Source: Eledone cirrhosa (Eukaryota). Taken from it: 64,000 nt of DNA. Location of the stretch: NCBI GenBank assembly GCA_964016885.1, contig OZ024740.1:206770001-206834000 (forward strand), written 5' to 3'. Below are positions 19,341 through 43,369 of the stretch, piece after piece; the first letter of the stretch is position 1; every line of letters starts with the position of its first letter. A program made the position numbers and the translations under genes. Under the pieces are notes generated by a model. The model saw only the letters and a list, made by a program, of their open reading frames with translations. It was not told the DNA's origin and did not search any database.

Positions 19341-19454
19341 GATACAATGATGTAATAAAATCGGAATGTAAGTAAATGAACTTACATAAAGATGGTAAAA
19401 AGCGATTCCTAAATTCTTTACAGCTGTTTCAGGGTCTAAGAGATATAGCGCCGA

Positions 19455-19946: not shown

Positions 19947-20010
19947 ATAACAACAACAATAATAATGATAATGATGATAATAATAACAATAATAATAATA
20001 ATAATAATAA
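19947..20010. repeat. (AAT)n microsatellite, left edge of the retroelement cluster
   Basis: Seen directly. Further (AAT)n spacers at about 24475, 28168, 31200, 31533, 31758, 36451, 36616, 42336 and 43289. Confidence 0.95.
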
Positions 20011-23000
20011 TTATACATTTTATATTCAAAAAAAGAAAATGGTTATAAATGGAAGAAAACCCCTCTGTCTACACTACATAGAACAGCCAAATAACAGCAA
20101 CTTCACCAACATCAGAAACTAGATACACCACCTACCCCATCACCCCTCTGTGTACACTAAACACAACAGCCAGATAACGGAAATTTCACCACCACCACCA
20201 CTAATCTCAGCATAATAATAATGATTACTATTATTATTGCCTCAAGTTTTAGTTTTAACAAAATGCTTAATTCCAATATTAAGAAAATATGTCAACACAT
20301 ATACGCGACTAACGATAATTTCACTAAAGATAATTTCACCACCACTACCACGATGAAAACTCTGGTCAAGTCGACTCAAATTTCTACTCCAACTTCAACA
20401 CCATCACTACAGTAATACGACCACATCACCACCACCACTGCCTCATTATCGCTACCGCCGCTATTCTCTCCCACTACCTCCTGCTAGTTGCTGCTAGCAC
20501 AGCACCGCCACCACCACCACCACCACTGCCTCATTATCACTAACGCCGCTATTCTCTCCCGCTAGCCCCTGCTACATTGTAGAATTCTCACTAAAAGAGG
20601 AAGGCATCAAAATATATAAATAGACTGAATTGATGACCCGGTCAAATAAAAAAAAAAAAAAAATCAAAATCAAAGCAGCACAGCAACAACGAAAAACGTA
20701 AAGAAAATAAGAATGAAGAGAAAAACAAACAGACGGACAGAGAAGGGAAGGGAAAAACTAAGTCAGACATTCAAACACTACATTACAATGAAACTTATGC
20801 TTATTCATTTTTGGGGTTTTTTCTGCCTGTTTGTTTGTTTGTTTATTTGTGTTCGTCTACAGCGTGATAATGCCACACAAAAGTCACGTGGAGTGACGAA
20901 ACCACCGGGGACGATGAATTCACCGGTGGTTATGTAACCGTACATTCGCCAATCCTCGATAAGAGTGTTTAAATGTCGAACCTAAACAGTTCGAATAACG
21001 GTGAAATGGAGACTAGAATGTCATGTGACAGACTCTCACCCAACAGGTGCTCCCTGGCTCAGCAGCAGGGACCTGGCTGTCAACCAAATACTGCTGGTGT
21101 CGGAGGAAGAAGAAGAAGGAAAGGGACCAGAACCAACTAGACGAAAGAATTGAATAGAACTGTTATGCAATGTTACCTGAAGAGTAACCCCAAGGAGAAA
21201 GGCTATAGGAAACGGATGCATAACATCTGGAACGAGATTGGTCCATTTAAATTAGATGAACAAAAACTGGCCGGGCAGGCTCGGGTAATAAGAACTAATG
21301 GGTGGATAAGCGAGCTGGAACTGGAGGAACTGAGCAGAGAGATTAGCTTGGAGATGGAGGGTGGAGTATGCCAGGCAAACGAGCCAGTGGGAAATGAAGG
21401 TAAAGAGGTCGAGAGAACGGAGGAACCACCCGAAGCAGACAATGATCTGAATGCTGAGATAAATAATACCTGGAACAGAGATACGGCCATTGAGGAGATG
21501 AATGCTGACGGGGTAGGACAATATTTGGTAGATATCCTAAACTTAGTGGTAGATGAATTGAACAATGATAGTGGGAGACCTATGAACCTAAGATTTGTAG
21601 ACAGGAAAAAGTTAAAAGAAACAACAGCTAAGGTAAACAAAGTCATCCCATACCTTGAGGCGAGGAGCCTTCACCAGTGCAACAATATACTCAAAGCAAC
21701 AGCAAATACGGTGAGGAAACTACTTGGTATAAAAGCGAGAGGAAACAACAGACAAGAAAGAGCAGAGCCTTGGTGGAAGAAACGACTGAGTGGCCAAATC
21801 AGGGAAATGAGAAATGACATTGGAAAGCTTGAGTCCCTACTGAATGGGACACTAAAAAACATAGACACTAAAAATAGACTGGAAATAAAGTACAAAACTA
21901 GGAGGAAAAAGCTAAATATTATCATAGAGGAACTGAAGCAACGCATTGATGCAAAGAGTGCAAAAATCAGGCGATACGAGAACAGAGTCAGTCAGTATAG
22001 ACAGAACCGCATGTTCTACAACAACCAGAAGATGTTGTTTGGACAGCTTGAAGGGAAAGAAAGAGGCAACGACTTGATCCCTGAGGCGGAACAAACTAAA
22101 ACATTCTGGAGAGGAATATGGGAGCAGGATGTTAAACATAATGACCAGGCAGTGTGGATTGAGACAGTAGAGAAGGAGATCAGTGAACAGGCACACCAAC
22201 AAACTGATTTGAGTATCACAGTTGAAACTCTTAAGGGGCAGGCCAAAAAACTAACCAACTGGAAATCACCTGGCCCAGATGGTGTGCAGGGGTATTGGAT
22301 TAAAAACATAACATCCCTCCACCCGAAACTGACAACCATGTTCAATGACTGCTTGATGTCAGGTGAGGTACCAGAGTGGTTGATAAAAGGTACCACAGTT
22401 CTGATAATGAAAGACCGAATCAAGGGTAATGATGTTACCAACTATAGACCTATCACATGTCTGTCCGTAATGTGGAAACTGTTGACAAGCATTATGTCTG
22501 AGGAAATCTACCATCACCTCCACACAAACAACTTGTTACCGGACGAACAGAAAGGATGCCGAAAGAAGTCACGTGGTACAAAGGACCAGTTACTTATTGA
22601 TAAGATGGTAATGAGGAATTGCAAGAGGAGACACACTGGTCTTGCCATGGGATGGATAGAGTACAAAAAGGCATTTGACATGGTGCCTCATTCTTGGATC
22701 ACCAAAAGCCTGGAGATCTTCAAGGTGGCAGATAACATTAGACAGTTGTTGGGCAAAACTATGAAGTCCTGGGAAACAGAGTTAACATCAACTAGAGAAT
22801 CCTTGGGAAGCGTGAAGATCAAGAGAGGTATCTTCCAGGGAGATAGTCAGTCCCCTCTGTTGTTTGTCCTTGCCCTGATGCCCCTGACCAGTGTACTGCG
22901 AAAAGTGAGAGCAGGATACAGGTTGGGAAAGGGAGGGCTTACCATCAATCACCTCCTCTTCATGGACTATCTTAAGCTCTTCGGGAAGAGTGAGAAGGAG

Positions 23001-24478
23001 TTGGATGTGCTTGTTGACACTGTCCGTATTTTCAGCAATGATATATGTATGCAATTTGGTATTAGTAAGTGTGGAGTCCTTGTGAGGAAGAGGGGTAAAT
23101 TGAGCAGAAGCAAGGGAATCCAGATACCAACAGGTGAGATGATAAAGGAAATTGACTCTGAGGAAGGATACAAGTATTTGGGTGTTCTGGAGGCTGATGA
23201 CATCAAGAACAAAAAAATGAAGGAATTGATAAGAACTGAATACCTTCGGAGAGTAAGGAGCGTATTAAAGTCACATCTGAACAGTAGGAATGCCATAAGT
23301 GCAGTAAATTCCCGAGCTGTGTCTATTATTAGGTACAGTGCGGGAATTCTGAAATGGAATGTTGCTGAACAAAAAGAAATGGATAGAAGACTAGGAAGCT
23401 ATTGACTATCTACAGTATGTTCCACAAGAGGAGTGATGTAGATAGACTCTACTTAAAGAGATCTGAAGGTGGAAGAGGTCTTATCAGCATAGAGGACTGT
23501 GTTCAGATGGAGAAAAACAACCTACACAAATACGTGACTGATAGTAAGGAGCCAATGCTCAGAACTGTACTGAAGGAGGGGACAATATGCCAGGAGATGT
23601 CCAAGGAGGAAATAACATCGAGAAGAAAGAGCAGCCTTGAGGAAAAATCCCTTCATAGTACCTTCTTTGAGAAAACTGAATTTAGAGATCCACAGACATG
23701 GAACTGGTTGAAAAGAGGAGACCTTAAAAAGGCTACAGAAGGAATGTTAATGGCTGCGCAGGAGCAGGCCCTCAAAACGAAGTGGTTGAAACACCACATT
23801 TACAAGGAGGAGGCTAGCCCACTGTGCAGGATCTGCGGAGAGAGACAGAGGAGACTGTGGCTCACATTGTATCCGAGTGTAAACACCTCGCCCAGACTCA
23901 CTATAAGGGCTGGAGACATGATGTGATGGGCAGGGTGATCCACTGGCACCTATGCAAAATAAACAATTTACCACATTCTGAGAAGTGGTATGAGCATAAG
24001 CCAGAGTCGGTGACAGAAAACGATCAGGTGAAGGTGCTGTGGGATTTTAGGATACAGACGGACAAGAAACTGGAACAAAATAGACCTGACCTGGTGGTTT
24101 TGGACAAGGAAAAAAGATCGTGCCTGATTGTGGATGTGGCCTGCCCATTCTACACGAGAGTGCAAGAAAAGGAGAGGGAGAAAATTAACCGATACCAGGA
24201 CTTAAAGTGGGAGGTAAAAAGGATTTGGAACTGCCATGAAGTCAAAGTGATCCCGATTGTCATAGGCACACTAGGGACTATCTCAAAAAGCTTCCAGGGA
24301 TGGTTAAAGAAAATTGGCCCCTTCACGCTTTTTGGAACGCTTCAAAAGGCATGCTTGCTGGGAACAGCAAGAACCCTCCGATACGTCCTGAATATCTGAG
24401 GCTGCAGGTAGTGGCTTGATATTCATTTCAACAAACTTTCCAGTTAACTAACATCAATGACTGAGACTCAAAGAGTAA
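20011..24478 (+). mobile_element. R4-clade (Dong/Rex6-like) non-LTR retrotransposon, family A copy 1, slightly 5'-truncated
   Basis: Myb-like N-terminus, RT (NWKSPGPDG, YRPITCL, GIFQGD, HLLFMD), CxxC..H..C knuckle, RHD and RPDLVV..D..K..KY restriction-like endonuclease. Flanked by (AAT)n. Dong elements are known to target (TAA)n. Confidence 0.93.
20973..24399 (+). pseudogene. Disrupted RT-RLE ORF of Dong-A copy 1
   Basis: TAG at 21138-21140 (TGG in copy 3), FMDY in place of FMDD, frameshifts at ~23388 and ~23845. Confidence 0.88.
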
Positions 24479-24482
24479 TAAC

Positions 24483-24515
<33 letters not shown>

Positions 24516-24517
<2 letters not shown>

Positions 24518-25798
24518 TTTCTTTATTGGCCACAAAGGCTGACATCAAGAAAAACATCACAGACGGCACAGGACGGTACAGGAAGGTACGATGTGGGTTT
24601 TGTGCGTGTAAATATTTTTATTATTTATATAAGAAAAGAAAAAAGACATAAAACATATATATATATAAACAATAAAATGAAAATTGAAACAATGAAAAAT
24701 TCCCCAATAGGGGGGAAACATCCGAGGGTTACTCGTGGCGAAAACCACACAAAAGACCACGGCCACCCTGACTACCAGGGCAAGCGCCATCTCTCAATGT
24801 TTCCATCTCTCAAACTTCAGACGTATATTCAGAGTGGTCCCGTTCACTCGGACCATTCTCGCTACATTCACCCACCTTTCAACAAACTTGCTAGAAAGCA
24901 GCACTTGCCTCTCCACCCTAATTTTCCTCTTCAAGTGAAACTTGAAAAAGTTAATCAGTTATTCGCCGAAGAGGAAAGTGTTTGTCTTTAATCCTTTTAA
25001 CCTTGTGTTTGTCTTTAATCCTTTTAACCTTTCGCCATGGCCACCAGGCAGATGAAAGCCGCCTGCCCTTCCTCCTCAAAGGAAGACGGCGAGACCATCT
25101 GCACAATGGACTCAGTCGACAACCGGATCAGTCCCACACGTGACAGCAACTGTTCGACATTGCTCCACAAATCAGCAATGCTCGGGCACTGAACGAGTGC
25201 GTACACAACGGTTTCGTCGCTATGCGCGCATCTCGGACAGGCTCGGCTGACGGCACTTCCGTGCCTGTAGAGCTTATCTCGAACCGGCAGCGCTCCCCGG
25301 TAGCACTGCCAGGCCAGGGATTTTTGAAAGTCATCCATAGGCCCCGGGCTGAAAGTTCTCCGGAAGAGAGCAAGCAGCTGATCTTCTTCGACGCCCAGGA
25401 TCTCTCAGAGAACGTCGTCGCTCTTCCCCTCCACTAGTCCTCTATAGAACGCCGAAGTGGATGTTCCACCGATACTGGTGCCCAACTGGGAGAGGGCAGT
25501 GAGCGCCTGGAGACATTCCAGTTTCCAAGCGCTATCCCTCGGTCTTTTTCTGACCCAGGACTGCAGCTCCGTCAAGGAGACGAGCTGTGGGAAAATGTGC
25601 CTGGCGAACGGCGACCACACCCGTTCACCCTCAAGGAAGCACCAGAGATGTCGCAGCCTCAGCTGTCAACACCCGTTGCGTGGAGGACTGGGCATGCCAT
25701 GGCTGATGATGCGCAAACATGCGCTGAGGCTGCGACATCTCTGGTGCTTCCTTGATGGTGAACGGGTGTGGTCGCCGTTCTCCAGGCACATTTTCCCA
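24516..25798 (-). mobile_element. 5'-truncated Tx1 family A copy with terminal inversion (25664-25798 on + strand)
   Basis: Encodes FQKSLAWQCYRGALPVRDKL..CPRC. 3' end TGTGGCCAATAAAGAAATC then (ATT)n. 25588-25663 is the reverse complement of 25722-25798. Confidence 0.9.
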
Positions 25799-25799
25799 T

Positions 25800-28166
25800 G
25801 ACAGAACTGTTATGCAATGTTACCTGAAGAGTAACCCCAAGGAGAAAGGCTATAGGAAACGGATGCATAACATCTGGAACGAGATTGGTCTATTTAAATT
25901 AGATGAACAAAAATTGGTCGGGCAGGCTCGGGTAATAAGAACTAATGGGTGGATAAGCGAGCTGGAACTGGAGGAACTGAGCAGAGAGATTAGGTTGGAA
26001 ATGGAGAGTGGAGTATGCCAGGCAAACGAGTCAGTGGAAAATGAAGGTGAAGAGGTTGAGAGAACGGAGGAACCATCCGAAGCAGACAATGATCTGAATG
26101 CAAAAAGTGCAAAGATTAGGCGGTATGAGAGCAGAGTCAGTCAGTATAGACAGAACCGCATGTTTGACAACAACCAGAAGATGTTGTTTGGACAGCTTGA
26201 AGAGAAAGAAAGAGGCAACGACTTGAACCCTGAGGCGGAACAGACTAAGACATTCTGGAGAGGAATATGAGAGCAGGATGTTGAACATTATGGTCAGGAA
26301 GTGTGAATTGAGACAGTACAGAAGGAGATTAGTGAACAAGCACACCAACAAACTGATTTGAGAATCACAGTTGAAACTCTTAAAGGGCAGGCCAAAAAAC
26401 TAACCAACTGGAAATCACCAGGCCCAGATGGTGTGCAGGGGTATTGGATTAAAAATATAACATCCCTCCACCTGAAACTGACAACCTGTTCAATGACTGC
26501 TTGATGTCGGGTGAGGTACCAGAGTGGTTGACAAAAGGTACCACAGTTCTGATAATGAAAGACCGAATCAAGGGTAATGATGTTACCAACTATAGATCTA
26601 TCACATGTCTGTCCGTAATGTGGAAACTGTTAACAAGCATTGTGTCTGAGGAAATCTACCATCACCGCCACATAAACAACTTGTTACCGGACGAACAGAA
26701 AGGATGCCGAAAGAAGTCCCGTGGTACAAAGGACCAGTTACTTATTGATAAGATGGTAATGAGGAATTGCAAGAGGAGACACACTGGTCTTACCATGGGA
26801 TGGATAGATTACAAAAAGGAATTTGACATGGTGCCTCATTCTTGGATAACCAAAAGCCTAGAGATCTTCAAGGTGGCAGATAATATCAGACAGTTGTTGA
26901 GCAAAAGTATGAAGTCCTGGGAAACAGAATTAACATCGGGTGGAGAATCCCTGGGAGGCGTGAAGATCAAGAGAGGTATCTTCCAGGGAGATAGTTAGTC
27001 CCCTCTGTTGTTTGTCCTTGCCCCGATACTCCTGACCATTATATTGCGAAAAGTGAGAGCAGGATACAAGTTGGGAAAAGGAGAGCTTACCATCAACCAC
27101 CTCCTCTTCATGGACGATCTTAAACTCTGTGGGAAGAGTGAGAAGGAGTTGGATGTATTTTCAGCAATGATATATGTATGGAATTTGGTATTAATAAGTG
27201 TGGAGTCCTAGTGATGAAGAGGGGTAAATTGAGCAGAAGCAACGGAATGCAACAGGAAATTGACACTGAAGAAGGATACAAATATTTAGGTGTTCTGGAG
27301 GCAGATGACATCAAGAACAAAACAATGAACGAATTGATAAGATCTGAGTACATTAGGAGAGTAAGGAACGTATTAAAATCACATCTAAATAGTAGGAATG
27401 TCATAAGTGCAGTGAATTCCCGAGCTGTGTCTATTATTAGGTACAATGCGGGAATTCTGAAATGGAATGTTGCTGAACAAAAAGAAATGGATAGAAGACT
27501 AGGAAGCTATGGACTATCTACAACATGTTCCACAAGAGGAGTGATGTCGATAGACTCTACTTAAAGAGATCTGAAGGTGGAAGAGGTCTTATCAGCATAG
27601 AGGACTGTGTTCAGATGAAAAATCCCTTCATAGTACCTTCTTTGAGAAAACTGAATTTAGAGATCCACAGACATGGAACTGGTTAAAAAGAGGAGACCTT
27701 AAAAAGGCTACAGAAGGAATGGCTGCGCAAGAGCAGGCCCTCAGAACGAAGTGGGCGAAACACCATATTTACAAGGAGGAGGCTAGCTAACTGTGTAGGA
27801 TCTGTAGAGAGAGAGAGGAGACTGTGGATGTAGCCTGCCCATTTGACACGAGAGTGCAAGAAAAGGAGAAGGAGAAAATTAACCGATACCAAGACTTAAA
27901 GTGGGAGGTAAAAAGGATTTGGAACTGCCATGAAGTCAAGGTCGTCCCGATTGTCATAGGCGCACTAGGTACTATCTCAAAAAGTTTCCAAGGATGGTTA
28001 AAGAAGATTAGTCCAGCCCCGCTTTTTGGAGCACTTCAAAAGGCATGCTTGCTGGGAACAGCAAGAACCCTCCAATACGTCCTGAATATCTGTGGCTGCA
28101 GATAGCGGCTTGATATTCATTTCAACAAACTCTCCAGTTAAATAACATCAATGACTGAGACTCAAA

Positions 28167-28168
<2 letters not shown>
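25800..28168 (+). mobile_element. Dong-A copy 2, 5'-truncated with several internal deletions
   Basis: Colinear with copy 1 from ~21155. Deletions at ~26100, 27157, 27250, 27618 and 27827. (AAT)n tail. Confidence 0.92.
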
Positions 28169-28232
<64 letters not shown>

Positions 28233-28233
<1 letters not shown>

Positions 28234-31198
28234 CTCTATTATGCATCGGCTAAAGTCACCACTCACTTATGTGGAGTGAAGATGAAAAAACAAAGGAATT
28301 CCCACAAGAAATCTACTTGGCAAGATAACATCAATCGCCAAATAAACCTTCTCCGATCTGACATAGAAATTTTAACAAACTATAAAGTAGGTGAACATGT
28401 TAAACAAACTAAACTTAGAAAATTGAAAAAAAAGTACAGTATAAGATCAACATGTGACATAGACATGCTGATAGAAACAATCAAGCAAAAAGTGTCGGCC
28501 AAAGCTGCTCGTATAAGGCGCTTTGAAAAACGATCTAGATTCTATAAGGACAATAATATGTTCAAAAACAACCAAAGAAATTTCTACAGAAAAATTGGTA
28601 AGTCAACAATAACTGCTAAATCAATACCACCCAAGGAGGAAGTGCAAGAATTCTGGGAAAAGATCTGGGCCAAAGAAAAAGTTCATAACATACATGCCCC
28701 ATGGATAGACAGACAAATGAAAGAACAGCTCACCTTGAAGAACAAACATGGGAAAATATAACAGTTGAACAGCTGCGCTTGGCTCTAAGAAAAACCAGCA
28801 AATGGAAATCCCCAGGAAAAGACAAAATACAAAACTTTTGGATAAATGCCTTCACAGAGTCTCATGAGCTGTTAGCCCAACTTTACAATGAAATAGTTAA
28901 GGAGCCAGAACAGATACCATCATGGCTAGTTAACGGCATTACATTCCTGCTACCGAAGAATGATGAGACAAACAATCCCAAAAATTACAGACCGATAACC
29001 TGCTTGACCACAATGTATAAAATTTTAACATCAGTCCTAACTGAATACACATATGACCACCTGATAACAAATGACCTATTTCCCATTGAGCAGAAAGGGT
29101 GTAAACGAGGCTCATATGGCTGTAAGGATCAGCTTCTGGTTAACAAAATGATACTGGAAGATTGTCATAATAGACACAAAAATCTATCGATTGCTTGGAT
29201 AGATTATAAAAAAGAATTTGATGGTTTGCCACACAGTTGGATTGAAAAATGTTTAGAGATTTTCAAAATATCCCCCGTTATCAGGAGGTTTTTGTCATTC
29301 AGTATGAGGACATGGAGAACGACACTCCTTTTGAATAGTGAAACAAAATCACTGGAAGCTGGAGAAGTTAACATTAATTGTGGAATTTTTCAGGGTGACT
29401 CTTTATCACCGCTTTTATTCTGCATCGCACTTATACCATTAAGTTAAATGCTCAATGAAACAAAACATGGATATAGAGTCTATGACAAAACCATTAATCA
29501 CCTGTTCTACATGGATGACCTGAAACTATTTGCAAAAAATGATGAACAATTGCAAGGGCTATTATCCACTGTGAAGCAGTTCAGTGATGACATTAAAATG
29601 GAGTTTGGACTGGATAAATGCGCCAAAGCAACGTTCACCAGAGGAAAGCTGCTGAAGAGTTCAGACATTAATCTTGATCGGGGGAACGTGATAAGAGAGC
29701 TTGATCAAGAACAAACTTACAAATATCTAGGTGTTTGTGAAGGAGACGGAATCAAGCACTCGACAATGAGGGAAAGGATAAGGAAGGAATGTTACCGCAG
29801 AGTCAGAGCAATCTTAAGAACGGAATTGAATGCAAGGAATAGGATCGATGCCATAAACACGCTTGCCATACCAGTAGTAACCTACAGTTACAATGTCATC
29901 AACTGGTCAAGCACAGAGATCCGTAGGCTCGATACAAAAATCCGAAAATTCTTAACCATGCACAGAATGCATCACTCTAAGGCAGATATAGATAGAATAT
30001 ATCTCCCTAGGAAAGAAGGAGGACGTGGGTTAATCCAGTTAGACATTGCGTTGAAAACTGCAACAATTGGATTATCTACACATCTAAGGGAATCACATGA
30101 TTGGATGATCAAACTCGTTTTGAAACACGAAAGCACCAAAAGATCATATTCCATTACAAAAGATGCACAAAGATACAGTAATGGACTACAAATTTCAGAA
30201 GTCCCATTTACTGCTGAAATGGAAAACACAGAAAAAGCAAAGCAGGTAAAAGTAACTGCAAAGAAAGAACTGCTACAGAAACTGGCTAAGAAATGGCAAG
30301 AAAAGCCTCTGTATGGAAAATACCCAGAGCGAGCTAACAATCCTGATGTTGACAAAACTTTAACCCATCAGTGGTTGGCATCCTCTGGACTGAAATCGGA
30401 GACTGAAGGACTGATTATATCCGCACAAGATCAGTGTCTGCCAACAAAAAATTACCAAGCCAACATAATAAAAAATGGGTGCAGCCCATTATGCCGTATA
30501 TGCAAAAAACAACCAGAGACCATTGACCATATAATTTCAATGTGCAGTCCTATAGCTCCAACCGAATACCTAAACAGGCATGACAGAGCTGCACAATACA
30601 TACATTGGATAATGTGTAAGCATTTTGACCTGCCCCATCAAAAGAATTGGTGGGAGCATCAACCACCTCCCATACTTGAAAAAGATCACATCTCAATCTT
30701 GTGGAACTTTAGCATCCAAACAGACCGAAAAATAGATGCAAATAGACCTGATATAATATTGAAGGACTTTCAAAGGAGGGTATGCCTGCTAATTGATATG
30801 TCTGTTCCAATAGACAAGAATGTATCTATAAAAACATTTGAAAAATTGAGCAAGTATAAGGACCTGGAGATAGAAATTGGAAAAATGTGGAAATTGAGAA
30901 CTAAAACAATACCAGTGGTTGTAGGCGCTCTGGGAATGATACCTAAGGGGTCTAACGACTACTTATCGCAAATCCCAGGAAACCCGCGTATAGGAGAAAT
31001 ACAAAAGATAGTACTAATGGGAACTGCCCATATACTAAGGAAGATCCTGTCAATATAAGTACATCACAAGTCTAAACACTAAGGATGCATGTGTGAATAT
31101 GTGTGTTCTTTCTTGAACATGGCGGACCTTGTTGTCTCTTGAGGTCACTGGTTGTGACTTGGTGATAACTCGTATAAACATAAAGCAAGATAAATGCA

Positions 31199-31200
<2 letters not shown>
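28233..31200 (+). mobile_element. R4/Dong-like element, distinct family B, 5'-truncated
   Basis: WKSPGKD, YRPITCL, GIFQGDSLSP, FYMDD, CRIC..ETIDHIISMC, RHD and NRPDIIL..D..K.KY. One frameshift (~28720) and one stop (29445). (AAT)n on both sides. Confidence 0.93.
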
Positions 31201-31250
<50 letters not shown>

Positions 31251-31254
<4 letters not shown>

Positions 31255-31533
31255 CAGGACCTAAAGTGGGAGGTGAAAAGGATTTGGAACTGCCATGAAG
31301 TCAAAGTGATCCCGATTGTCATAGGCGCACTGGGGACTATCTCCAAAAGTTTCCAGGGATGGTTAAAGAAAATCGGTCCCTTCACGCTTTTTGGAACGCT
31401 TCAAAAGGCATGCTTGCTTGGAACAGCAAGAACCCTCCGATACGTCCTGAATATCTGAGGCTGCAGGTAGTGGCTTGATATTCAATCCAACGGACTTTCC
31501 AGTTAACCAACATCAATGACTGAGATTCAAGGA
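31251..31533 (+). mobile_element. Short 3'-terminal fragment of Dong-A
   Basis: YQDLKWEVKRIW...LRYVLNI plus 3' UTR, between (AAT)n tracts. Confidence 0.92.
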
Positions 31534-31562
31534 ATAACAACAATAATAATAATAATAATAAT

Positions 31563-31755: not shown

Positions 31756-31769
31756 TATAATAATAATAA

Positions 31770-34700: not shown

Positions 34701-36450
34701 CTAGAGATCTTCAAGGTGGCAGATAACATCAGACAGTTGTTGGGCAAGAGTATGAGGTCCTGGGAAACAGAGTTGACATCAACTGGAGAATCCTTGGGAA
34801 GCGTGAAGATCAAGAGAGGTATCTTCCAGGGAGATAGCCTGTCCCCTCTGTTGTTTTTCCTTGCCCTGATGCCCCTGACCAGTGTACTGCGAAGAGTGAG
34901 AGCAGGATACGGGTTGGGAAAGGGAGGGCTTACCATCAATCACCTCCTCTTCATGGACGATCTTAAGCTCTTCGGGAAGAGTGAGAAGGAGTTGGATGTG
35001 CTTGTTGACACTGTCCGTATTTTCAGCAGTGATATATGTATGCAGTTTGGTATTAGTAAGTGTGGAGTCATTGTGATGAGGAGGGGTAGGTTGAGCAGAA
35101 GTAACGGAATCCAGATACCAACAGGTGAGATGATAAAGGAAATTGACTCTGAGGAAGGATACAAGTATTTGGGCGTTCTGGAGGCTGATGGCATAAAGAA
35201 CAAAAAAATGAAGGAATTGTTAAGAAATGAATACATTCGGAGAGTAAGGAGCGTATTGAAGTCACATCTGAACAGCAGAAATGCCATAAGCGCAGTAAAT
35301 TCCCGAGCTGTGTCTATTATTAGGTACAGTGCGGGAATTCTGAGATGGAATGTTGCTGAACAAAAAGAAATGGATAGAAGACTAGAAAGCTATTGACTAC
35401 CTACAACATATTCCACAAGAGGAGTGATGTCGATAGACTCTACCTAAGGAGATCTGAGGGTGGAAGAGGTCTTATCAGCATAGAGGACTGTGTTCAGATG
35501 GAGAAAAACAACCTACACAAATACGTGACTGATAGTAAGGAGCCAATGCTCAGAACTGTACTGAAGGAGGGGACAATAGGCCAGGGGATGTCCAAGGAGG
35601 AAATAACATAGAGAAGAAAGAGCAGCCTTGAGGAAAAATCCCTTCATAGTACCTTCTTTGAGAAAACTGAATTTAGAGATCCACAGACATGGAACTGGTT
35701 GAGAAGAGGAGACCTTAAAAAGGCTACAGAAGGAATGTTAATGGCTGCGCAGGAGCAGGCCCTCAAAACAAAGTGGTTGAAACACCATATTCACAAGGAG
35801 GAGGCTAGCCCACTGTGCAGGATCTGTGGAGAGAGAGGAGACTGTGGCGCACATTGTATCCGAGTGTAAACACCTAGCCCAGACCTACTATAAGGGCTGG
35901 AGACATGATGTGATGAGCAGGGTGATCCACTGGCACCTGTGCAAAGTAAACAATTTACCACATTCTGAGAAATGGTATGAGCCAGAGGCGGTGATGGAGA
36001 ACGATCAGGTGAAGGTGCTGTGGGATTTTAGGATACAGACGGACAAGAAACTGGAACACAATAGACCTGACCTGGTGGTTGTGGACAAGGAAAAAAGATT
36101 GTGCCTGATTGTGGATGTGGCCTGCCCATTCTACACGAGAGTGCAAGAGAAGGAGAGGGAGAAAATTAACCGATACCAGGACTTAAAGTGGGAGGTAAAA
36201 AGGATTTGGAACTGCCATGAAGTCAAAGTGATCCCGATTGTCATAGGCGCACTAGGGACTATCTCAAAAAGCTTCCAGGGATGGTTAAAGAAAATTGGCC
36301 CCTTCACGCTTTTTGGAACGCTTCAAAAGGCATGCTTGCTGGGAACAGCAAAAACCCTCCGATACGTCCTGAATATCTGAGGCTGCAGGTAGTGGCTTGA
36401 TATTCATTTCAACAAACTTTCCAGTTAACTAATGACTGAGACTCAAAGAG
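31770..36450 (+). mobile_element. Dong-A copy 3, apparently full length with ~1.2-kb 5' UTR; ORF disrupted
   Basis: Starts directly after (AAT)n. The 5' region from 31975 aligns with 20012. ORF pieces span 33002-36380 with FMDD and RLE motifs. Confidence 0.93.
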
Positions 36451-36457
36451 TAATAAC

Positions 36458-36500
<43 letters not shown>

Positions 36501-36502
<2 letters not shown>

Positions 36503-36616
36503 TGTTTCTACTTTTGGCACAAGGCCAGCAATTACCCAGTGCATTACTGGTACTTTATTTTATCGACCCCGGAAGGATGAAAGGCAAAGTTAACCTCGGC
36601 GGGATTTGAACTCAGA
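36501..36616 (-). mobile_element. SINE S1, 5'-truncated, in (AAT)n
   Basis: B box through tail, nearly identical to 31563-31680. Confidence 0.9.
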
Positions 36617-36889
36617 ATAATAATAATGGTTTCTTTATTGGCCACAAGGGCCGACACGAAGAAAAACATTAGAGACGGCACAGATCAGTACAGGACGATA
36701 CAAAGTGGGTTTTGGTCGTGTAAACAGGTTATAACAAAATCGGGCTAGAAATCCAAAAAAATTCAAACAACAAAAATTCCCCAAGAAGGGGGAAACCTCC
36801 GAGGGTCACTCGTGGTGAAAAAAACACAAAAGACCACGGCCACACTGACCACCAGGGCAAGCGCTCTCTCTCACTTTTCCCACTCCTCA

Positions 36890-39800
36890 CTCTACAGGCG
36901 TATACTCAGAGCAGGCCCGTTCACTCGGACCAGACTCGTCACTTTCACCTACCTTTCAACAAACTTACTAGAAGACAGCACTTGCCTCTCCACCCTGATT
37001 TTCCTCTTCAAGTGAAACTTGAAAAAGTTAATCAGGGATTGGCCGGAGAGGAAAGTGTCCGTCTTCAACCCTTTTAACCTTGTCTACCACACAATCTCTT
37101 TCGCCATGGCCACCAGGCAGATGAAAACTGCCTGCCCTTCCCGACTAAAGGAAGAGGGCGGGGCAATCCTCACAATGGACTCAGTCGATAACCGTCAGCA
37201 ATCCTCGGGCACTGAGCGAGTGTGTGCAGGACGGTTTCGTGCCCTGCGCGCATCTCGGACAGGCTCAGCTGACAGCACTTCCGTGCCTGTAGAGCTTATC
37301 CCGAACCGGCAACGCTCCCCGGTAGCACTGCCAGGCCAGGGGTTTCTGGAAGTTGTCCATAGACCCCGGTCTGAAAATTCTCTTGAAGAGAGTGAACAGC
37401 TGATCGTCTTCGACGCCCAGGGTCTCCCCGAGATCGTCGTCGCTCTTTCCCTCCCCTCAATAGAATGCCGAGGTGGATGTTCCACCGATACTAGTGCCCA
37501 GCTGGTAGATGCAGTGAGCGCTTGGAGACATTCCAGCTTCCAAGTGCTATCCTTCGGTCTTTTCCTGATCCAGGACTGCAGCTCCGTCAAGGAGACGAGT
37601 TGGGGAAAAGCGCGTCTGGCAAACGGCGACCACACCTGTTCACCGTCAAGGAAGCACCAGAGATGTCGCAGCCTCAGCGCATGTTTGCGCATCATCAGCC
37701 ACGGCATGCCTAGTCCTCCACGCAACGGGTGTTGACAGCAAATGGATCGTCTGACCATGGGAGCACATCCCTTCCACAAAAAGCGGAAGAGTCGGCGCTC
37801 CATTTTGGTCAGAGTTGGACGGGGGAAAGGTACGACGGTCAGGCGGTAGCAGATGACGGACGCGATGTACGCATTCGTCACCTCCGCCCGATCTTTCAGA
37901 GACAGTCTCTTCTCGGCCCATTTCTGGGTGAGAGAGGCCACCCTGCTCGTCACCTCGCTCCAGTTTTTCTCCATCTGGAGGTCCAGACTGAACCAGACCC
38001 CGAGTAATTTAACGGGTCCTTCCGTCCAGCGCCCTACAACGCTGTCGGACGGCATGGACATGCCTCTCCAGGTGCCGAGTTGCAAGCCCACTGACCTTTC
38101 CTGGTTTATCTTTGCTCCTGTCACCGCTTCGTATTCTTTGAGAGCGGCGCCAAGCATCTGGACATGTTTGGTGCGCGACACCACCACGGTGACGTCGTCG
38201 GCGTAAGCTGACATGGATGTCCCGCATCCCAGTTCACATGGGACTCTCCTCATCGTCTCCAATTTGTGCAGTAATAGCTCTAGGGCCAGTACGTACAAGA
38301 GGGAGGAGAGGGGGCAACCCTGGCGGACCGAGCGCATGATGCTGAAAGGCTGCGATTCACCTTCACAATCGAGCAGATGTCGCTGTGCACCGCAGCGATC
38401 CAGCCCCTAAAAACGGCCCGAAGCCGGTAGCCTCGAGGACCGCAGCCAGGTACCGATGGTCGACCCTATGAAATACTTTAGATTGATCCAAGTTGATCAG
38501 GGCTCCACCCGTACCTGGTTCCTTAACCACCCTCTCTATGATGTATCGCATGACAAGGAGCTTGTCGTGGTTGGATCTGTCCAGAATGACGCATGTCTGC
38601 GCGTCTCCCACCAAGTCACCGACTACAAGCGCCAATCTCTTTGCTAACACCTTGACCAAAATCTTAAACTCTGCGTTTAGCAGAGTTATGGGCCTGAAGT
38701 TGTCTATAACGTCCCCCTTGTTCGGGTCTTTTCTCAGCAGCGCCACCGCTCCCCGGCTCACAAAACTGGGAATGCTCCCGTTCTGCTGCCGGTTGCAGTA
38801 GACATCTGCCAAGAGGTCACCGAACAAGTCTGGCATATACGCATAAAGCTCGTAGGGCAGACCATCCAAACCTGGTGATTTACCCCTTGTGCAGTCAGAG
38901 ATCACTTCTCGTATTTCACCTGTTATCGACTTTTCGCAGCACTTCGCTGCGGTCGTCGAGAGCCGCGGCAGTCCGTCGATGTTTGCACCGAAGTCCATAC
39001 TCCGATCCGGCCCGCCGCCGCACACATCTGCTCGGGTTCGAGCAATATGCACCCGTTTTGATCAGGCAAAGACCGAATTGTGGACTTGTTGCCACGTCGC
39101 GCCTCCACCACCCGGGCCCATTGAATGGCTTTCGTCCCCTCGTGTCTTAGAGCACGCACTCTAGCTCTGACAACGCAGCCTTCATGCTTTGCGTTGAAGA
39201 ATTGGTCGAGTGCCAATCTCGCCGCAAGCACGTCGATTGCGATGTCTGTCCTAAACGCATCTTCTAGCTTTCTAACTAGCTTTCCCTCTACTTTATTTTC
39301 CTCTATCACTACTGCTTTGCTAAACCTTATCGATTCTACCCTAATAGCTCTTTTCAGGGTAAACCACCACCTGTTGTTGACGATCGCACCCGTCAATGCA
39401 CGCTTAACTAATTCTCTAATCCGTTCTCTGTAAGCTTTGCGCGCCGGAATAGACGCGTTCAGCTTCCAGTAACCGGGCCCTTGCCTATGGAGTTTATCTA
39501 AGTCAACTTCACAGATCACAAATTTGTGGCCTGTGTAGTCGACTACTTTAAATTGTGGACAACCTACACTAGCCTTATCTGCTTCCCTACAGAATATCCT
39601 ATCTAAATACGATCTGGATGACCCGATGCGGTTTGCCCGTGTCCACATTGGCACATTCGGATAATCCAGTCTATACCTGTCAGACAGTTCAAAACGTCTG
39701 AGCAGGTTGTTGAGGCTTTTATACCCTCCACCCTGTCTACTAGTCCCACATAATCCCAGCGTGCATCTAAGATACCGTTCCAGTCGCCCACTAACACTAA

Positions 39801-40197
39801 AGAGCGTTCCAAGAAAGGTTTCTAGACATCTGAAGAAATCTGACCGTCCTACTGTTGGGGCGTAGACGGCTAGTAGCCTGAAAGCATTGCTCTCGCTGCC
39901 GGTAACGTTCAGCACCACTGACTTACATTCTGGGTCCAGGAAGATGGCCCGTATGGCGAGATCCAAGCCTCTCCGAAAAAGCACAGCAACTCCTCCCTTC
40001 AATCCCGGACGACTGGGAGATGCGTATACATTGTAGCCGCCGAAGATCGGTGCGTAGGCTCGTGTTTGGGAGATTCTGGTCTCGCTGATGGCCACCACAT
40101 CTATGTTTAGTGACCTGAGGTCATTAAGCAGGTGACTCTGCTTCCAAGATGACCCCAGGCCACCTACATTTATACTGCCTATTCTAAGTACGCCCAT
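36890..40197 (-). pseudogene. Tx1-A ORF2 (APE-RT-zf), frameshifted
   Basis: ORF pieces 38923-40233, 38363-39052 and 37195-38337 are colinear with the family B protein. Confidence 0.88.
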
Positions 40198-40392
40198 GTT
40201 GGGTGAAGAACGGGGTAAGTGAGAAAGGATCACTTACCTTGATCGTGTGGGGAAGGGACAGTACAACCTTCCCTTCAGCTGGTCATGGGTGTCTCCAAGG
40301 TGATATCTGTATATATTCTTTTGGGGAGTGACCCTCTAAAATCCCCAACGCAGTGGGGGAATTTTTGCTTTAATTGTTTATAGTCTTCCAGT

Positions 40393-41733
40393 TTAATGTC
40401 GACAATTGTAATGTTTTTGGGCAATGTTCTTGGTGTTGGTGGGGTGTGGTAATTTAAGTCTGAAATATCGGTGTGGTGTTTTATGTTCTATTAATCCTTT
40501 GTGTGCAATGTTTATGGCTGTGTACCTTTGTGTGTGTGTGTGTGTGGAGGTGGGGGGGGGGTGCTGTTGGGTGTGAGTGGTTTGTTGTGTTTGTGGTGAT
40601 GTTTGGTGGTGGTGTGGTTGTTGTGTTTGCGATGTTGCTGGTGTGGTTATTGGTGGTGATGCTTGTGGTGGTGATGGTGGTGGCGTTGCTTCAAGTCTCC
40701 TTACAGCCTTTACCCCTCTTTCTTTGCCCTCGCTTTTGGAGGGAGAAGCTGTGGTGTTTTGCGTTTGTTTTTTTTTTTGTTGACAACCGTTTTCCACTCC
40801 TCAGCCGCCTCATACTTCATGTCCGACTGTGAGAGGTCGGGGTGGGGTATGAGTTCTATCCTCTCATTTGTCTTTGTTGTTGTGTTGTAGTTGGTGGTGG
40901 TGGTGGAGCCTGGTCTGCCGTTTTTGGCACAGGTGCAGCAAGTGCAACTGTTTCTGTTGCTGTTATTGCCGCCGATGCTTTTGTTGTCCATGGCTTTGGT
41001 GTGGGTGCCACAGACGTTGTCCTACTCTCTGTAGAAGATCCTGACTTCCTCGCTGCCTGCCCTGTTTCTGATGGCAGCGGTTCCGGCGTTGGAAGGAGGG
41101 GGACCTTCGCCTTAGTTATCTACTGTGGGCATAAGGCCCTGAGGTGAGACTTCGATCCTCAGTTGTTATACTTTAGGTGCCTTCCTTTCACAGATTTGGG
41201 AAGTTGGGAGCCATTCTCGATGTTTATTATGTTGGGAATAGCGCTGATGCAGTCCTAGTCAGTTTGGATGAGCATCTCCATTCCAATACCGGACCAGTCC
41301 TCTCTCCCCAAAGTTTGTACCTGCAGAATTGTCGTTTTGTCCTCGATGCCCACAAGCACAGATACGACCAGCCAAGGCACGGATACGTAGGACAGGACCT
41401 GCGTCACCCTGACCTTTGCATTTTTTCCGCAGTAAAAAGGGACTAATATTATTTCATCACTCCGTAGGGTTGAGATTTTGCTTCCTGGGTGGTAGCAAAA
41501 AGGACCTCAACAGTAGCATACTTTTTGCCTCGGGTGATGTGGGTTTTCCGTGCCCACACAGTCTCCAAGACCTTTTGTATTTGGGCTTCCGAGGCTCTCT
41601 CCACACGACGCGATTTCGTGGCAATCGTGCGGTATGACACTATGCGTCGCTCTTGTTCCCCCAGGAAGTCGGTTGGTGGTTTCAAGGAGAATGAAAATTC
41701 AGTTTTGGTTATCATGTGTCTTGCGACCGCCAT
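40393..41733 (-). pseudogene. Tx1-A ORF1 (gag-like), frameshifted
   Basis: Lies upstream of ORF2. Knuckle remnant KYNN*GSKSHLRALCP and basic WKTVVNKKK motif. Confidence 0.65.
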
Positions 41734-42344
41734 CTCCTCCTCTCTGAGCAGGACTGTCTACATTGTGTATCACCCTCGCAAAAGAGAGTGTCCCCCTTTT
41801 CAGCGGCACCATTGTTGTTGCCGCTACTGCTGCTACTGGTCTTGTTTATGCTGTTGCTGTTGATACTGCTACAACCGGTGTTGTTGGTGTTGCTGCTGCT
41901 ACTGCTACTACTTGTTATTGTTACTGCTGCTACTTCCTTTGTTGCCGTTTTGCCAAATGCAGCTGCTTCTCGACCGCCACGTGATAAAGAGGTGACGATG
42001 AAGAAGACGAAAAGGAAAGCGAGACTCCACGCTGACAGTTTGGTGAAGAACGGTTTTGAGTGAAAACAAGGTAGAGAAAGAGATTTCTTGTGTGACTCCG
42101 TTTTTCTTTTTTTGGGTGTGTGGGGTGGGGGTGGGGGTGTGTGGGGTGTGTGCGTATTTGCCAAATGTAAAGTTCAAATTGGAATTTAGCCCCGAATAAT
42201 TTCGACCACCTCAAGAGAAGCGGGCTGTGTTTGAACACAAAACAATATAAATTTCTACAATAAGTTCGCAATAAAAACTGTTAAAAAATCACAAACTTAC
42301 GGGAGCAAAATTTCCTGCGACGTGTATACTTCCACAATAATAAT

Positions 42345-43288
42345 GCTTTCTTTATTAACCACAAGGGTTTACAAAAAGTAAGACATTAAGGATAGTACAG
42401 GACAATACAGGACGGTACAAAAGGGCATTTCTGCGTGTAAAAAAAAAACAACAGAGGATGTAACAAAAAAAAAAAGAACAATGAAAAATTCCCCAATAGG
42501 GGGGAGACTTCCGAGGGCCATCGTGGAGAAAGCCCATTAAAAAAGCCACGGTGATCCTGACCACCAAGGCAAGTGCCCTCTCCCAGTTTTCCACATTCAA
42601 TTTACAGGCACATACTCAGAGTAGACCCATTCACACGGGCCATTCTTGCCTCTCTCACCCATCTTTCAACAAAATGCTGGGAAGAGAGCACTTCCCTCTC
42701 TACCCTGATTTTCCTTTTCAAATGAAATTTGAAAAAGTTAATCATGGCATCACCGAAGAGGTAAGTGCTCGTCTTCAGCCCTTTCAGACGCGTCCACCAT
42801 ACTATCTCTTTCGCCATGGCCACCAGACAGATAAAAACTGCCTGCCCTTCCCGGCTAAAGGAAGAGGGCGGGGCAATCCTCACGATGGACTCAGCTGATA
42901 GCTGGTGTTCGACATAAACCCACAAGTCAGCAATGCTCGGACACTGGACCAGTGCATGCAGGACGGTTTCGTCACCCTGTGCGCATCTCGGACATGCCCG
43001 CTGACGGCACCTCCATGCCTGTAGAGTTTATCCCGAACCGGCAAAGCTCCTCGGTAGCACTGCCAGGCCAGGGATTTCTGGAAATTCTCCATAGGCCTCG
43101 GCCAGAAAGTTCTTCCGAAGAGATTGGCTAGTTGATTTTCGTCGACGCCTAGAGTTTCCCCAAGTACGTCGTCGCTCTTCCCCTCCACTAATCCTCTATA
43201 GAACGCCAAGTTGGAGTTTCCACCGATCACATTGTCCGACTGGTCGAGGTTTGTGAGCGCCCGAAGACATTCCAGTCTCCAAGCGCTC
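42345..43288 (-). mobile_element. 5'-truncated Tx1-A-related copy
   Basis: FQKSLAWQCYRGALPVRDKLYRHG..., 3' UTR ending TGTGGTTAATAAAGAAAGC then (ATT)n. (AAT)n on both sides. Confidence 0.92.
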
Positions 43289-43369
43289 AATAATAATAAT
43301 AATAATAATAATAAGAAGAAGAACAATAACAAGAATAAAAATATGGTATATATCATCTTTTTTTAATTT

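Follow-up and report, generated by a model that had tools for sequence, protein, structure and literature searches.

Ten non-LTR retroelement copies lie in series at positions 19,946-43,343 of the window, the whole 64-kb stretch of Eledone cirrhosa DNA analysed here. We read them, with a probability of about 0.85, as ten independent insertions into one (AAT)n tract, in which Dong-like copies stand on the + strand and Tx1-like and SINE copies on the - strand, likely through strand-specific pairing of their RNA 3' ends.

Results

The features of the array, and of two SINE copies outside it, are as follows (positions in the window, strand, description).

19946..20011, +, left tract edge, degenerate (AAT)n with AAC and GAT variant units (TRF, 85% matches)
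20012..24482, +, Dong-A copy 1, 5'-truncated by ~218 nt, ORF in pieces (RVT_1)
24483..24515, +, (AAT)11 between the 3' ends of Dong-A copy 1 and Tx1, tail to tail
24516..25797, -, Tx1-like 3' fragment, ~1.15 kb, 5' piece inverted (self-BLAST)
25803..28167, +, Dong-A copy 2, start position 1377, three internal deletions (RVT_1)
28168..28233, +, perfect (AAT)22 (TRF, 100% matches)
28234..31198, +, Dong-B copy, 3' 2,965 bp of an element of ~4.9 kb (RVT_1)
31199..31253, +, perfect (AAT)18 (TRF)
31254..31541, +, Dong-A 3' fragment, last ~290 nt (self-BLAST)
31542..31565, +, (AAT)8
31566..31756, -, full-length SINE, 191 nt, last ~30 nt like the Tx1 3' end
31757..31770, +, (AAT)4-5
31771..36457, +, Dong-A copy 4, full length, broken ORF (RVT_1)
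36458..36502, +, (AAT)15 (TRF)
36503..36615, -, SINE 3' fragment, from position 75-78 (self-BLAST)
36616..36627, +, (AAT)4
36628..42335, -, full-length Tx1-like element of 5.7 kb with APE and RT
42337..42345, +, (AAT)3, separating the full-length Tx1 (5' end) and the next Tx1 (3' end)
42346..43288, -, Tx1-like 3' fragment, 942 nt, another subfamily (90.7% identity to the L053 copy)
43289..43343, +, right tract edge, (AAT)n decaying to AAG and AAC variant units (TRF, 84% matches)
19453..19622, +, SINE outside the tract, orientation opposite, with an ATTATTA end only
17230..17405, +, SINE outside the tract, with an ATTATT-type end only and a 12-bp target duplication

Self-BLAST and annotation against natural genomic copies gave the order Dong-A, Tx1, Dong-A, Dong-B, Dong-A fragment, SINE, Dong-A, SINE, Tx1, Tx1, and reproduced the ten elements, their order and their orientation as the preliminary description had them. 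Dong-like copies are on the + strand in 5/5 cases and Tx1-like or SINE copies on the - strand in 5/5, a fit of 10/10 that random orientation would produce about once in 1000. The window has ten (AAT)n runs of at least four units, nine of them inside the array; on the + strand all ten are AAT, with no ATT run. The near-universal separation of the elements by (AAT)n that had been described holds at 8/9 internal junctions; the head-to-head junction at 25797/25803, where Dong-A copy 2 adjoins the Tx1 5' end directly, is without (AAT)n, and the junction at 42337-42345 has a run of three units only. As had also been claimed, no element body in the window is interrupted by another element. Each (AAT)n spacer lies at the 3' end of some element.

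Start points differ among the copies of Dong-A (219, 1377, ~4230 and 1) and of Tx1 (~4733, 1 and ~5037), and so do subfamilies, which supports the independent insertions proposed earlier. Identity by self-BLAST is unequal between neighbour pairs (91% for the Dong-A pair, 79% for the adjacent Tx1 pair), and this, together with the different subfamilies, argues against the segmental duplication that the preliminary description had named as a possible refutation. The outer tract edges are degenerate whereas the inner (AAT)n runs are perfect (TRF); from this difference and from the 16-bp target duplications described below, we infer that the array may sit in a single (AAT)n microsatellite and that its growth may have been self-extending.

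Dong-A copy 1 shares 97.4% identity with the L022 genomic copy, from position 219 on, and over its 3' 400 bp the 40 genomic copies scored are 98-99% identical to it. Dong-A copy 4 has the conserved 5' leader GGGAAGAAGACGCAC... The Dong-B copy is 99.5% identical to the one in L031, and all of the scored genomic matches to its 3' 400 bp (40/40) show 100% identity; this copy is very young. The first Tx1 copy has a 5' inversion at 25664-25797 with 77 nt duplicated, as in twin priming, its direct part corresponding to 4733-5841 and its inverted part to 4675-4809 of the copy in L006. The full-length Tx1, 82% identical to that same L006 copy, contains Exo_endo_phos in 38923-40233(-) and RVT_1 in 37195-39061(-), has its ORF2 broken into at least three overlapping open frames, and is adjoined at its 5' end by (ATT)3. 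The 5' flank of the Tx1-like fragment at 42346..43288 is likewise (ATT)n.

The claim that two unrelated endonuclease classes meet on this repeat was borne out by the coding sequences. Dong-like elements have a single ORF with RT, then a CCHC knuckle, then a PD-(D/E)xK restriction-like endonuclease (RLE). The intact Dong-B ORF (L031, 1253 aa) aligns with the solved R2 protein 9nl3_A (E 7e-27, residues 486-1199) over the CCHC knuckle CRVCKKQPETIDHIISMC and the RPD...D...EK motif, and the Dong-A ORF (L022, 1141 aa) keeps these motifs at 40% protein identity to Dong-B; the two lineages have a common target and a nearly identical 5' leader. In these ORFs Pfam gives RVT_1 and a weak zf-RVT only, with no APE domain. 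Assignment to the Dong/R4 clade is putative, resting on architecture, target and database labels; no clade names occur among the 120 homologues listed. Pfam showed no Myb/SANT-like domain at the N-terminus of the Dong ORF up to E 5. By eye, the ORF has a W-x-x-E-D-like stretch that might be related to Myb/SANT. An Rfam search of the Dong 5' end for an HDV-like ribozyme gave no match at E<=1, a method by which one is easily missed, and the consensus fold of nine 5' leaders reached -2.3 kcal/mol with 8 pairs and no covariation, an approach that also easily misses ribozymes.

The intact Tx1 ORF2 (L053, 1100 aa) contains Exo_endo_phos at 87-275 and RVT_1 at 576-819 (Pfam). Its closest solved relative is human L1 ORF2p (E 1.6e-52), and two database relatives with 28-32% identity are labelled 'Transposon TX1' at source. 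The protein combines an APE domain with an L1-group RT, and its probable Tx1-clade membership is judged by proxies, namely architecture, target and database labels.

Strand preference was scored in 57 fetched loci and the window, the loci having been picked either by similarity to window copies or within a single 5-Mb part of a single chromosome. Read in element orientation, the Dong 3' flank is (AAT)n of at least three units in 56/58 copies and ATT in none, and the Tx1 3' flank is (ATT)n of at least three units in 32/38, two units in 3/38, none in 3/38 and AAT in 0/38. The reverse pattern (Dong 3' ATT, Tx1 3' AAT) was found in 0 copies of either family; the opposite fixed orientation on one repeat, noted in a single array at first, extends genome-wide. 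The junction unit of Dong varies, and only 1,650 of 4,993 exact Dong-A 3' ends fit a narrow R-TAATAA pattern. At the 5' side, AAT flanks 33/47 Dong copies, including 5'-truncated copies with varied truncation points, and most of the 14 copies without it reflect SINE insertions or artefacts of chaining. In 13/13 full-length Tx1 copies the 5' end adjoins (ATT)n, and the repeat is on both sides of every one examined; of the 5'-truncated Tx1 copies, only 5/25 are flanked by ATT on the 5' side, and most of them are without a target duplication. Genome-wide, exact (ATT)3 follows 1,653 of 2,487 exact Tx1 3' 22-mers; it does not follow the other 834.

When the 3' ends of three SINE and five Tx1 copies are aligned, the SINE has a 3' tail of ~30 nt in common with Tx1; about half of the SINE copies lie outside any tract. 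Abutting direct repeats of at least 8 bp were present in 21/46 SINE copies, with a median target-site duplication of 16 bp; 14 of these 21 duplications run on into DNA that is not repeat, with an ATTAT start in 11 of these. The target-site duplications that start with ATTAT(T) are 9-18 bp long. Where a SINE copy lies in unique DNA, its ATT units do not exceed those of the duplicated target. One SINE in L012 is followed by (AAT)n, not (ATT)n. In L015, a Tx1 copy has a 17-bp duplication holding two ATT units only, and the SINE in tandem with it carries the same duplication. These target-site duplications in unique DNA indicate that Tx1 and the SINE require ATTAT(T) only and have no strict microsatellite specificity. 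Neither ARAGORN nor Rfam found a tRNA in the SINE head, which looks tRNA-like by eye, with a B-box-like GAGTTCAAATCCC.

The window array is typical of the genome and not special: of the first 17 tracts with at least 15 AAT units on C1, 15 have a Dong- or Tx1-type element no more than 100 bp away and oriented as expected, and the same architecture occurs at many independent loci. Among the matches listed for C1 0-76 Mb, the Tx1 and Dong-A 3' ends no more than 250 bp apart form six pairs on opposite strands, which were compared by eye and are 6/6 tail to tail; a further pair, separated by 4 kb, shares one strand. Long (AAT)n tracts number ~14,000 by rough extrapolation (17 tracts per 100 listed matches of ~83,700).

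Discussion

The spacers could in principle be (AAT)n 3' tails brought by the elements themselves, in the way that the Drosophila I factor has a (TAA)n tail, with no target preference and with accumulation in a gene-poor region. Such tails would account for the position of all spacers at some element's 3' end, for the unique 5' flanks of most 5'-truncated Tx1 copies and for the many SINE copies in unique DNA. However, they leave unexplained the (AAT)n that 5'-truncated Dong copies adjoin at varied truncation points (33/47) and the (ATT)n at the 5' end of full-length Tx1 (13/13); SINE copies in unique DNA gain no ATT beyond a duplicated target that itself starts with ATTAT, and a strict opposite-strand rule toward neighbours is unexpected from random insertion, making this explanation very improbable. 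We give hardly any credence to an assembly artefact or to the segmental duplication of a unit of Dong plus Tx1. A region of high-copy repeats with microsatellites at the joins is indeed hard to assemble, but neighbour pairs have diverged unequally (Dong 91%, Tx1 79%), truncation points, subfamilies and intervening SINEs differ between copies, many independent loci have the same architecture, and a 388-nt contig from run X1 agrees with the unique left flank at every position up to the tract.

It is also unlikely that the Tx1 protein recognises long (AAT)n and thereby confines Tx1 strictly to the microsatellite, the dispersed SINE copies being relaxed, trans-mobilised exceptions. The L015 Tx1 has a duplication of 17 bp with two ATT units, common to the neighbouring SINE, Tx1 3' ends have two units in 3/38 cases and none in 3/38, and 834/2,487 exact 3' ends lack an exact (ATT)3 after them, even though full-length copies lie between (ATT)n runs in 13/13 cases and 32/38 3' ends have at least three units. 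The convergence of Tx1 on the microsatellite that the preliminary description inferred, with non-ATT 5' flanks or random orientation named as evidence against it, survives in part: full-length copies abut (ATT)n and orientation is not random, but ATTAT(T) suffices in unique DNA and most truncated copies do have non-ATT 5' flanks (5/25 ATT).

In our reading of ten insertions under a strand rule, each family has a fixed orientation, likely because its RNA 3' end pairs with one repeat strand only, as would happen in target-primed reverse transcription on the nicked repeat. The junctions suggest that the Dong endonuclease would cut the TTA strand, with cDNA primed on a (UAA)n RNA tail, and that the Tx1 APE would cut the AAT strand immediately past ...AATAAT; this AATAAT end would prime on a Tx1 RNA whose tail, also deduced from the junctions, would end in ...(AUU)n, and a second nick would follow ~16 bp downstream. 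A long tract would offer Tx1 a dense series of targets, and Dong would need the tract itself. Repeat would remain on the flanks of each insertion through the split tract, the target duplication and the tails, so that arrays could go on growing away from genes. For the ATT-less 5' flanks of truncated Tx1 copies, the model must assume target deletion at 5' joining.

A more tentative extension, which we consider possible but rather doubtful, is a positive-feedback loop between the repeat and two lineages, Dong-like and Tx1-like, together with the SINE, in which the lineages would build and renew most long (AAT)n tracts and supply each other with targets. AAT units would be gained with each insertion, by the 16-bp target duplication for Tx1 and the SINE and by tails for Dong. 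If this were true, a pair of parasites with unrelated endonucleases would maintain most of the long (AAT)n tracts of the genome.

Dong specificity for (TAA)n, Tx1 families that target microsatellites and the sharing of one repeat from opposite strands by TRAS and SART are already published; the ATT-targeting Tx1/SINE pair and the pairing of RLE with APE appear new. Dong elements of the R4 clade, as described in Bombyx mori, Anopheles, Biomphalaria, an ostracod and others, enter (TAA)n in a single orientation, flanked on each side by TAA, and encode a single ORF with RT, CCHC knuckle and restriction-like endonuclease, without APE (PMC3812793, PMC7998251). Accounts of related elements mention recently active Dong-R4 families in Octopus vulgaris (PMC13282606), a 5' HDV-like ribozyme in Bombyx Dong (PMC3774820) and a diverged N-terminal Myb/SANT-like domain in Dong/R4 (PMC7998251). 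As far as these accounts go, the Eledone cirrhosa Dong-like elements match in ORF layout, (TAA)n target and fixed orientation, whereas a ribozyme like that of Bombyx was not detected here, with methods that easily miss one. A further difference is that the two lineages here, at 40% protein identity, use a single target and have almost the same 5' leader.

Microsatellite families described in the Tx1 clade include Kibi in (TC)n, Koshi in (TTC)n and crocodilian Tx1 in (TTCC)n/(TTTC)n (PMC4494074, PMC3812793). On these descriptions, the element studied here is alike in being a LINE of the L1/Tx1 group, of APE type, that prefers one simple repeat and one orientation; it differs in its ATT/AAT target, of which two units are enough, and its Tx1-clade membership is judged by proxies. 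No report of an ATT/AAT target for a Tx1-type element was found in the literature searched. In the crocodilian Tx1-Mar/SINEU pair, the SINE is described as having its partner's target preference, and tandem SINEs sandwich the same target duplication (PMC4494074). Tandem copies with the same target duplication occur here too, in L004 and L015, but the SINE head looks tRNA-like where that of SINEU is given as snRNA-derived, and the target is a short repeat motif and not a DNA transposon.

A parallel to the strand rule is that of Bombyx TRAS and SART, which insert into telomeric (TTAGG)n in opposite directions, each nicking its own strand, with two or three units sufficing (PMC7265360). There, as here, two LINE families use one simple repeat, each in a fixed and opposite orientation. 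As described, however, TRAS and SART are both APE elements of one clade (the R1 clade) and confined to telomeres; here an RLE element is paired with an APE element, a SINE is also involved, and the tracts, of which there are thousands, lie at interstitial positions. R1 and R2 in 28S rDNA are an APE element and an RLE element on the same multicopy target, entering the gene in the same orientation at different sites that lie 74 bp from each other. The array in Eledone cirrhosa is alike in bringing APE and RLE together on one multicopy target, which here is a microsatellite entered in opposite orientations.

Results

Ten retroelement copies lie along an (AAT)n tract

Tandem Repeats Finder and a regular-expression search found ten (AAT)n runs of at least 4 units in the 64-kb window, all with AAT on the plus strand and none with ATT, and nine of the ten fall within 19,946-43,343. 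Comparison of this region with itself delimited ten repeat copies, which were confirmed against natural genomic copies and belong to two Dong-like (R4-type) lineages, Tx1-like elements of the L1 group and a SINE.

Repeat copies of the array, in order along the window
20012-24482, plus strand, Dong-A, 5'-truncated with about 218 nt missing
24516-25797, minus strand, Tx1, 3' part of 1.15 kb and an inverted piece at 25664-25797
25803-28167, plus strand, Dong-A, beginning at element position 1377 and with three internal deletions
28234-31198, plus strand, Dong-B, 3' 2,965 bp (complete element about 4.9 kb)
31254-31541, plus strand, Dong-A 3' fragment
31566-31756, minus strand, SINE, full length
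31771-36457, plus strand, Dong-A, full length
36503-36615, minus strand, SINE fragment
36628-42335, minus strand, Tx1, full length
42346-43288, minus strand, Tx1 3' fragment

This confirms the array as noted in the preliminary description, whose order of elements matches exactly and whose statement that no element interrupts another is true within the window. The near-universal separation by (AAT)n that it described stands at eight of the nine internal junctions, including three (AAT) units at 42337-42345, and fails at the head-to-head junction 25797/25803, where the inverted 5' end of the first Tx1 meets the 5' end of the following Dong-A without intervening repeat. The inverted segment of that Tx1 overlaps its direct part by 77 nt (window 25600-25800), an arrangement of the twin-priming type. 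Toward its two ends the tract is degenerate (84-85% matches; variant units AAC, GAT and AAG), and the inner runs are purer (93-100%). Just beyond the tract lie two further SINE copies, on the plus strand, with ends of the ATTATT type only.

Long simple repeats are very plentiful across the window. A 7.7-kb (ACC)n tract at 4460-12167 (88% matches) was first visible as an extreme C and A skew. At 53971-58180 lies a (TA)n tract of 4.2 kb, and another (TA)n run at 63228-64000 continues up to the window end. An open frame of 1392 residues on the minus strand (44921-49099) is made of 111-bp tandem units and contains 27 pacifastin-inhibitor domain stretches (Pfam, E 1.9e-184); the pacifastin family is typical of arthropods. 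A cephalopod host, suggested by one 66-residue match to an Octopus gene model, was set aside as unproven on account of this gene.

The two groups of elements carry unrelated endonucleases

In the window copies, Pfam identified RVT_1 in the plus-strand elements and Exo_endo_phos with RVT_1 in the minus-strand element. Because the frames of these copies are broken, natural copies with intact frames from this genome were used for protein analysis and gave ORFs of 1253 residues for Dong-B (locus L031) and 1141 residues for Dong-A (locus L022) that are 40% identical. Dong-B aligns to the solved R2 retrotransposon protein (9nl3_A, E 7e-27) across the reverse transcriptase (RT), the CCHC knuckle and the RPD...D...EK motif of the restriction-like endonuclease (RLE). 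Neither Dong ORF has an APE domain, and their N-termini gave no Pfam matches up to E 5. The intact Tx1-like ORF2 of 1100 residues (locus L053) has APE and RT domains, and among solved proteins its best match is human L1 ORF2p (E 1.6e-52). As the Dong ORFs are of the RLE type without APE and the Tx1 ORF2 carries APE, the proposal of two unrelated endonuclease classes is borne out. Homologue names and cluster members for the close relatives bear no clade or host labels, and the protein atlas gave generic RT/APE clusters; two distant database relatives of the Tx1 ORF2 carry the source label 'Transposon TX1'. The clade assignments Dong/R4 and Tx1 are putative ones that agree with architecture and target.

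Despite their 40% protein identity, Dong-A and Dong-B have almost the same 5' leader, some 50 nt long (GGGAAGAAGACGCAC...GCTCCCGTAAG), which stands directly after the repeat in the window (31777-31830) and at loci L026, L029, L032, L035, L046-L048 and L053; at L022 and L032 a grown (AAG)n run separates the repeat from the leader. A 5' HDV-like ribozyme has been reported for Dong in a passage of PMC3774820. The Dong copies here gave no ribozyme match in Rfam: window 19-44 kb at E<=1 yielded two chance-level matches only, with no HDV-like ribozyme and no tRNA, and a consensus fold of nine Dong 5' leaders had no supported structure; such ribozymes readily escape both methods. SINE and Tx1 copies have a 3' tail of about 30 nt in common, and the SINE head in the region was not called as a tRNA by ARAGORN or Rfam.

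Element orientation follows the repeat strand across the genome

Flanks were scored in element orientation at 57 loci of 6-10 kb each, comprising 20 at Tx1 matches, 10 at Dong-A, 10 at Dong-B, 5 with intact Tx1 ORFs and 12 tract stretches that cover the first 17 (AAT)>=15 tracts listed on contig C1 of the same genome (0-5.3 Mb). Reading (AAT)15 backwards gives the identical repeat and hence provides no control.

The 3' flank of Dong was (AAT)>=3 in 56/58 copies and interrupted AAT in the remaining 2, and that of Tx1 was (ATT)>=3 in 32/38, with two units in 3 and none in 3; the reverse repeat appeared in 0/58 and 0/38, respectively. SINE 3' flanks were more varied, with at least three ATT units in 19/47, two in 16/47, none in 7/47 and AAT-type calls in 5/47, most of them ambiguous. 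The L012 copy is real and is the sole clear SINE-tail exception, with (AAT)n joined straight to (ATT)n between Dong-B and the SINE (L012:1263-1299). At the 5' side, (AAT)n adjoins 33/47 Dong copies with many and varied truncation points, the remaining 14 being mostly chaining artefacts or neighboring SINE or Tx1 copies, and full-length Tx1 copies with three types of 5' leader begin directly after (ATT)n in 13/13 cases.

Of the 17 tracts sampled by position, 15 lay no more than 100 bp from the end of a Dong, Tx1 or SINE copy, in the expected orientation every time, and a second array of at least 26 kb, made of Dong only, lies at C1:2,786,200-2,812,200. Exact-pattern counts over the genome found that 1,653 of 2,487 Tx1 3' 22-mers continue as (ATT)3, and that the Dong-A junction pattern R-TAATAA matches 1,650 of 4,993 exact 3' ends, a lower bound because the pattern is too narrow. 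Among the places listed for C1 0-76 Mb and judged by eye, Tx1 and Dong-A 3' ends within 250 bp of each other were tail to tail on opposite strands in 6/6 pairs, and 12/13 pairs within 10 kb were on opposite strands. The window array is thus unexceptional: the pattern is genome-wide, and known mechanisms account for it.

Tx1 and SINE also insert outside the microsatellite

The behavior of Dong is that of a truly (TAA)n-specific element; Tx1 and SINE do not need a tract. Both flanks could be read for 46 SINE copies, of which 21 had an abutting direct repeat of at least 8 bp. Of these duplications 14 extend into non-repeat DNA, where they start with ATTAT in 11/14 and contain ATTAT or TTATT among the first nine letters in all 14; at these unique sites the SINE is followed by no additional ATT units past the duplicated target. 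The median duplication length is 16 bp. Tx1 copies with non-ATT 5' flanks, which the preliminary description had named as evidence against its reading, do occur: ATT was present at only 5/25 5' flanks of truncated Tx1, and most of these copies have a unique 5' flank and no target duplication (L002, L010, L012, L013, L016, L018, L019 and others), yet no full-length copy lacked it.

At L015:1376-2998, a tandem of Tx1 and SINE has a 17-bp duplication common to both, and at L004:279-1013 four tandem SINEs sandwich one 9-bp duplication; these tandems suggest that insertion recurred at one identical pair of nicks. SINE copies or fragments also lie within Dong bodies (L021:2431-2682, L038:5666-5725 and L039:2237-2401), and elements therefore do interrupt each other elsewhere, at ATTATT motifs.

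The families are abundant and young

The Dong and Tx1 families are abundant and young. The 3' 400 bp of Tx1 gave more than 4,000 first-look candidates, and the other 39 scored copies were 94-97% identical; scored Dong-A copies were 98-99% identical. For the 3' 400 bp of Dong-B, 40/40 scored matches among the places listed on contig C1 (genome G000) were 100% identical, pointing to a burst that is very recent or still under way. Sequencing runs X4, X5 and X7, labelled as other organisms, contain contigs with Dong-B (window 28243-31186) at about 99% identity, for example one of 1,474 nt with 16-17 differences, and one contig reaches 1.15 kb past the truncated 5' end of the window copy. The family is therefore nearly unchanged among several labelled organisms.

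Discussion

That the repeats next to the elements are tails brought along by elements inserting without target preference is contradicted by what flanks Dong and full-length Tx1 on the 5' side, and by the target duplications at unique sites. A segmental duplication as the source of the array is likewise contradicted, as divergence is unequal (91% for a Dong pair vs 79% for the adjacent Tx1 pair) and subfamilies and truncation points differ. A misassembly is unlikely; four sequencing runs gave short contigs only, at very high multi-copy depth, which speak neither for nor against the assembly of this locus and contain no empty site. Independent insertion into a common target, in which two endonuclease classes converge from opposite strands and each insertion leaves target for others, is the interpretation of the preliminary description, and we consider it largely right, with a lower specificity of Tx1 and SINE than claimed. 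The array may also be a source of small RNAs, as that description suggested.

We propose that the Tx1/SINE APE would nick the AAT strand directly after ...AATAAT, with a second nick about 16 bp downstream, so that targets would be densely packed along a long (AAT)n tract. An RNA whose 3' end is (UAA)n would pair with the TTA strand alone and one ending in (AUU)n with the AAT strand alone, because AAT and ATT are not self-complementary, and target-primed reverse transcription would fix Dong and Tx1/SINE in opposite orientations on the same duplex. The repeat would be left on the flanks of every insertion, so later insertions of either kind would find adjacent targets. The array may grow by insertion in this way, with indirect evidence in the pure inner and decayed outer runs and in the 16-bp duplications. 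The scarcity of ATT at the 5' flanks of truncated Tx1 may reflect two modes of joining: full-length Tx1 cDNA may join the upstream repeat through homology, and joining of truncated cDNA may remove what is left of the tract. Such removal would also account for the repeat-less junction 25797/25803 and perhaps also for the '5' truncation' of the neighboring Dong-A.

These observations suggest that long (AAT)n repeats in this genome are to a large extent linked to a few active retroelement families, a point relevant to annotating repeats, to assembly and to AAT microsatellites used as markers. In shrimp, part of PMC7878876 argues that transposable elements carry simple-repeat expansion, and according to Table 1 of PMC13282606, Octopus vulgaris has many Dong-R4 and L1-Tx1 insertions of recent date.

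Passages of PMC3812793 and PMC7998251 give (TAA)n as the specific target of Dong in insects, molluscs, cnidarians and an ostracod. Sections of PMC4494074 describe Tx1-clade families specific to (TC)n, (TTC)n, (TTCC)n and (TTTC)n, together with a SINE that has the target of its partner Tx1 and whose tandem copies sandwich a duplication. In PMC7265360, TRAS and SART are described as entering (TTAGG)n in opposite orientations; each of them nicks a strand of its own and requires two or three repeat units. In the literature searched, outside Repbase and Kojima & Fujiwara 2004, we met with no Tx1-type element or SINE that targets ATT and with no RLE and APE elements (Dong and Tx1) that share one microsatellite from opposite strands, an absence that weighs little. 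What appears to be new here is the Tx1/SINE pair that targets ATT, together with the pairing of RLE and APE elements. The known principles of target-primed reverse transcription are unchanged by this finding, which offers a natural example of RNA tail sequence and nicked strand together setting insertion polarity, of two enzymes of unrelated origin reaching the same non-coding target, and a ready substrate pair for comparing RLE and APE strand choice on one duplex.
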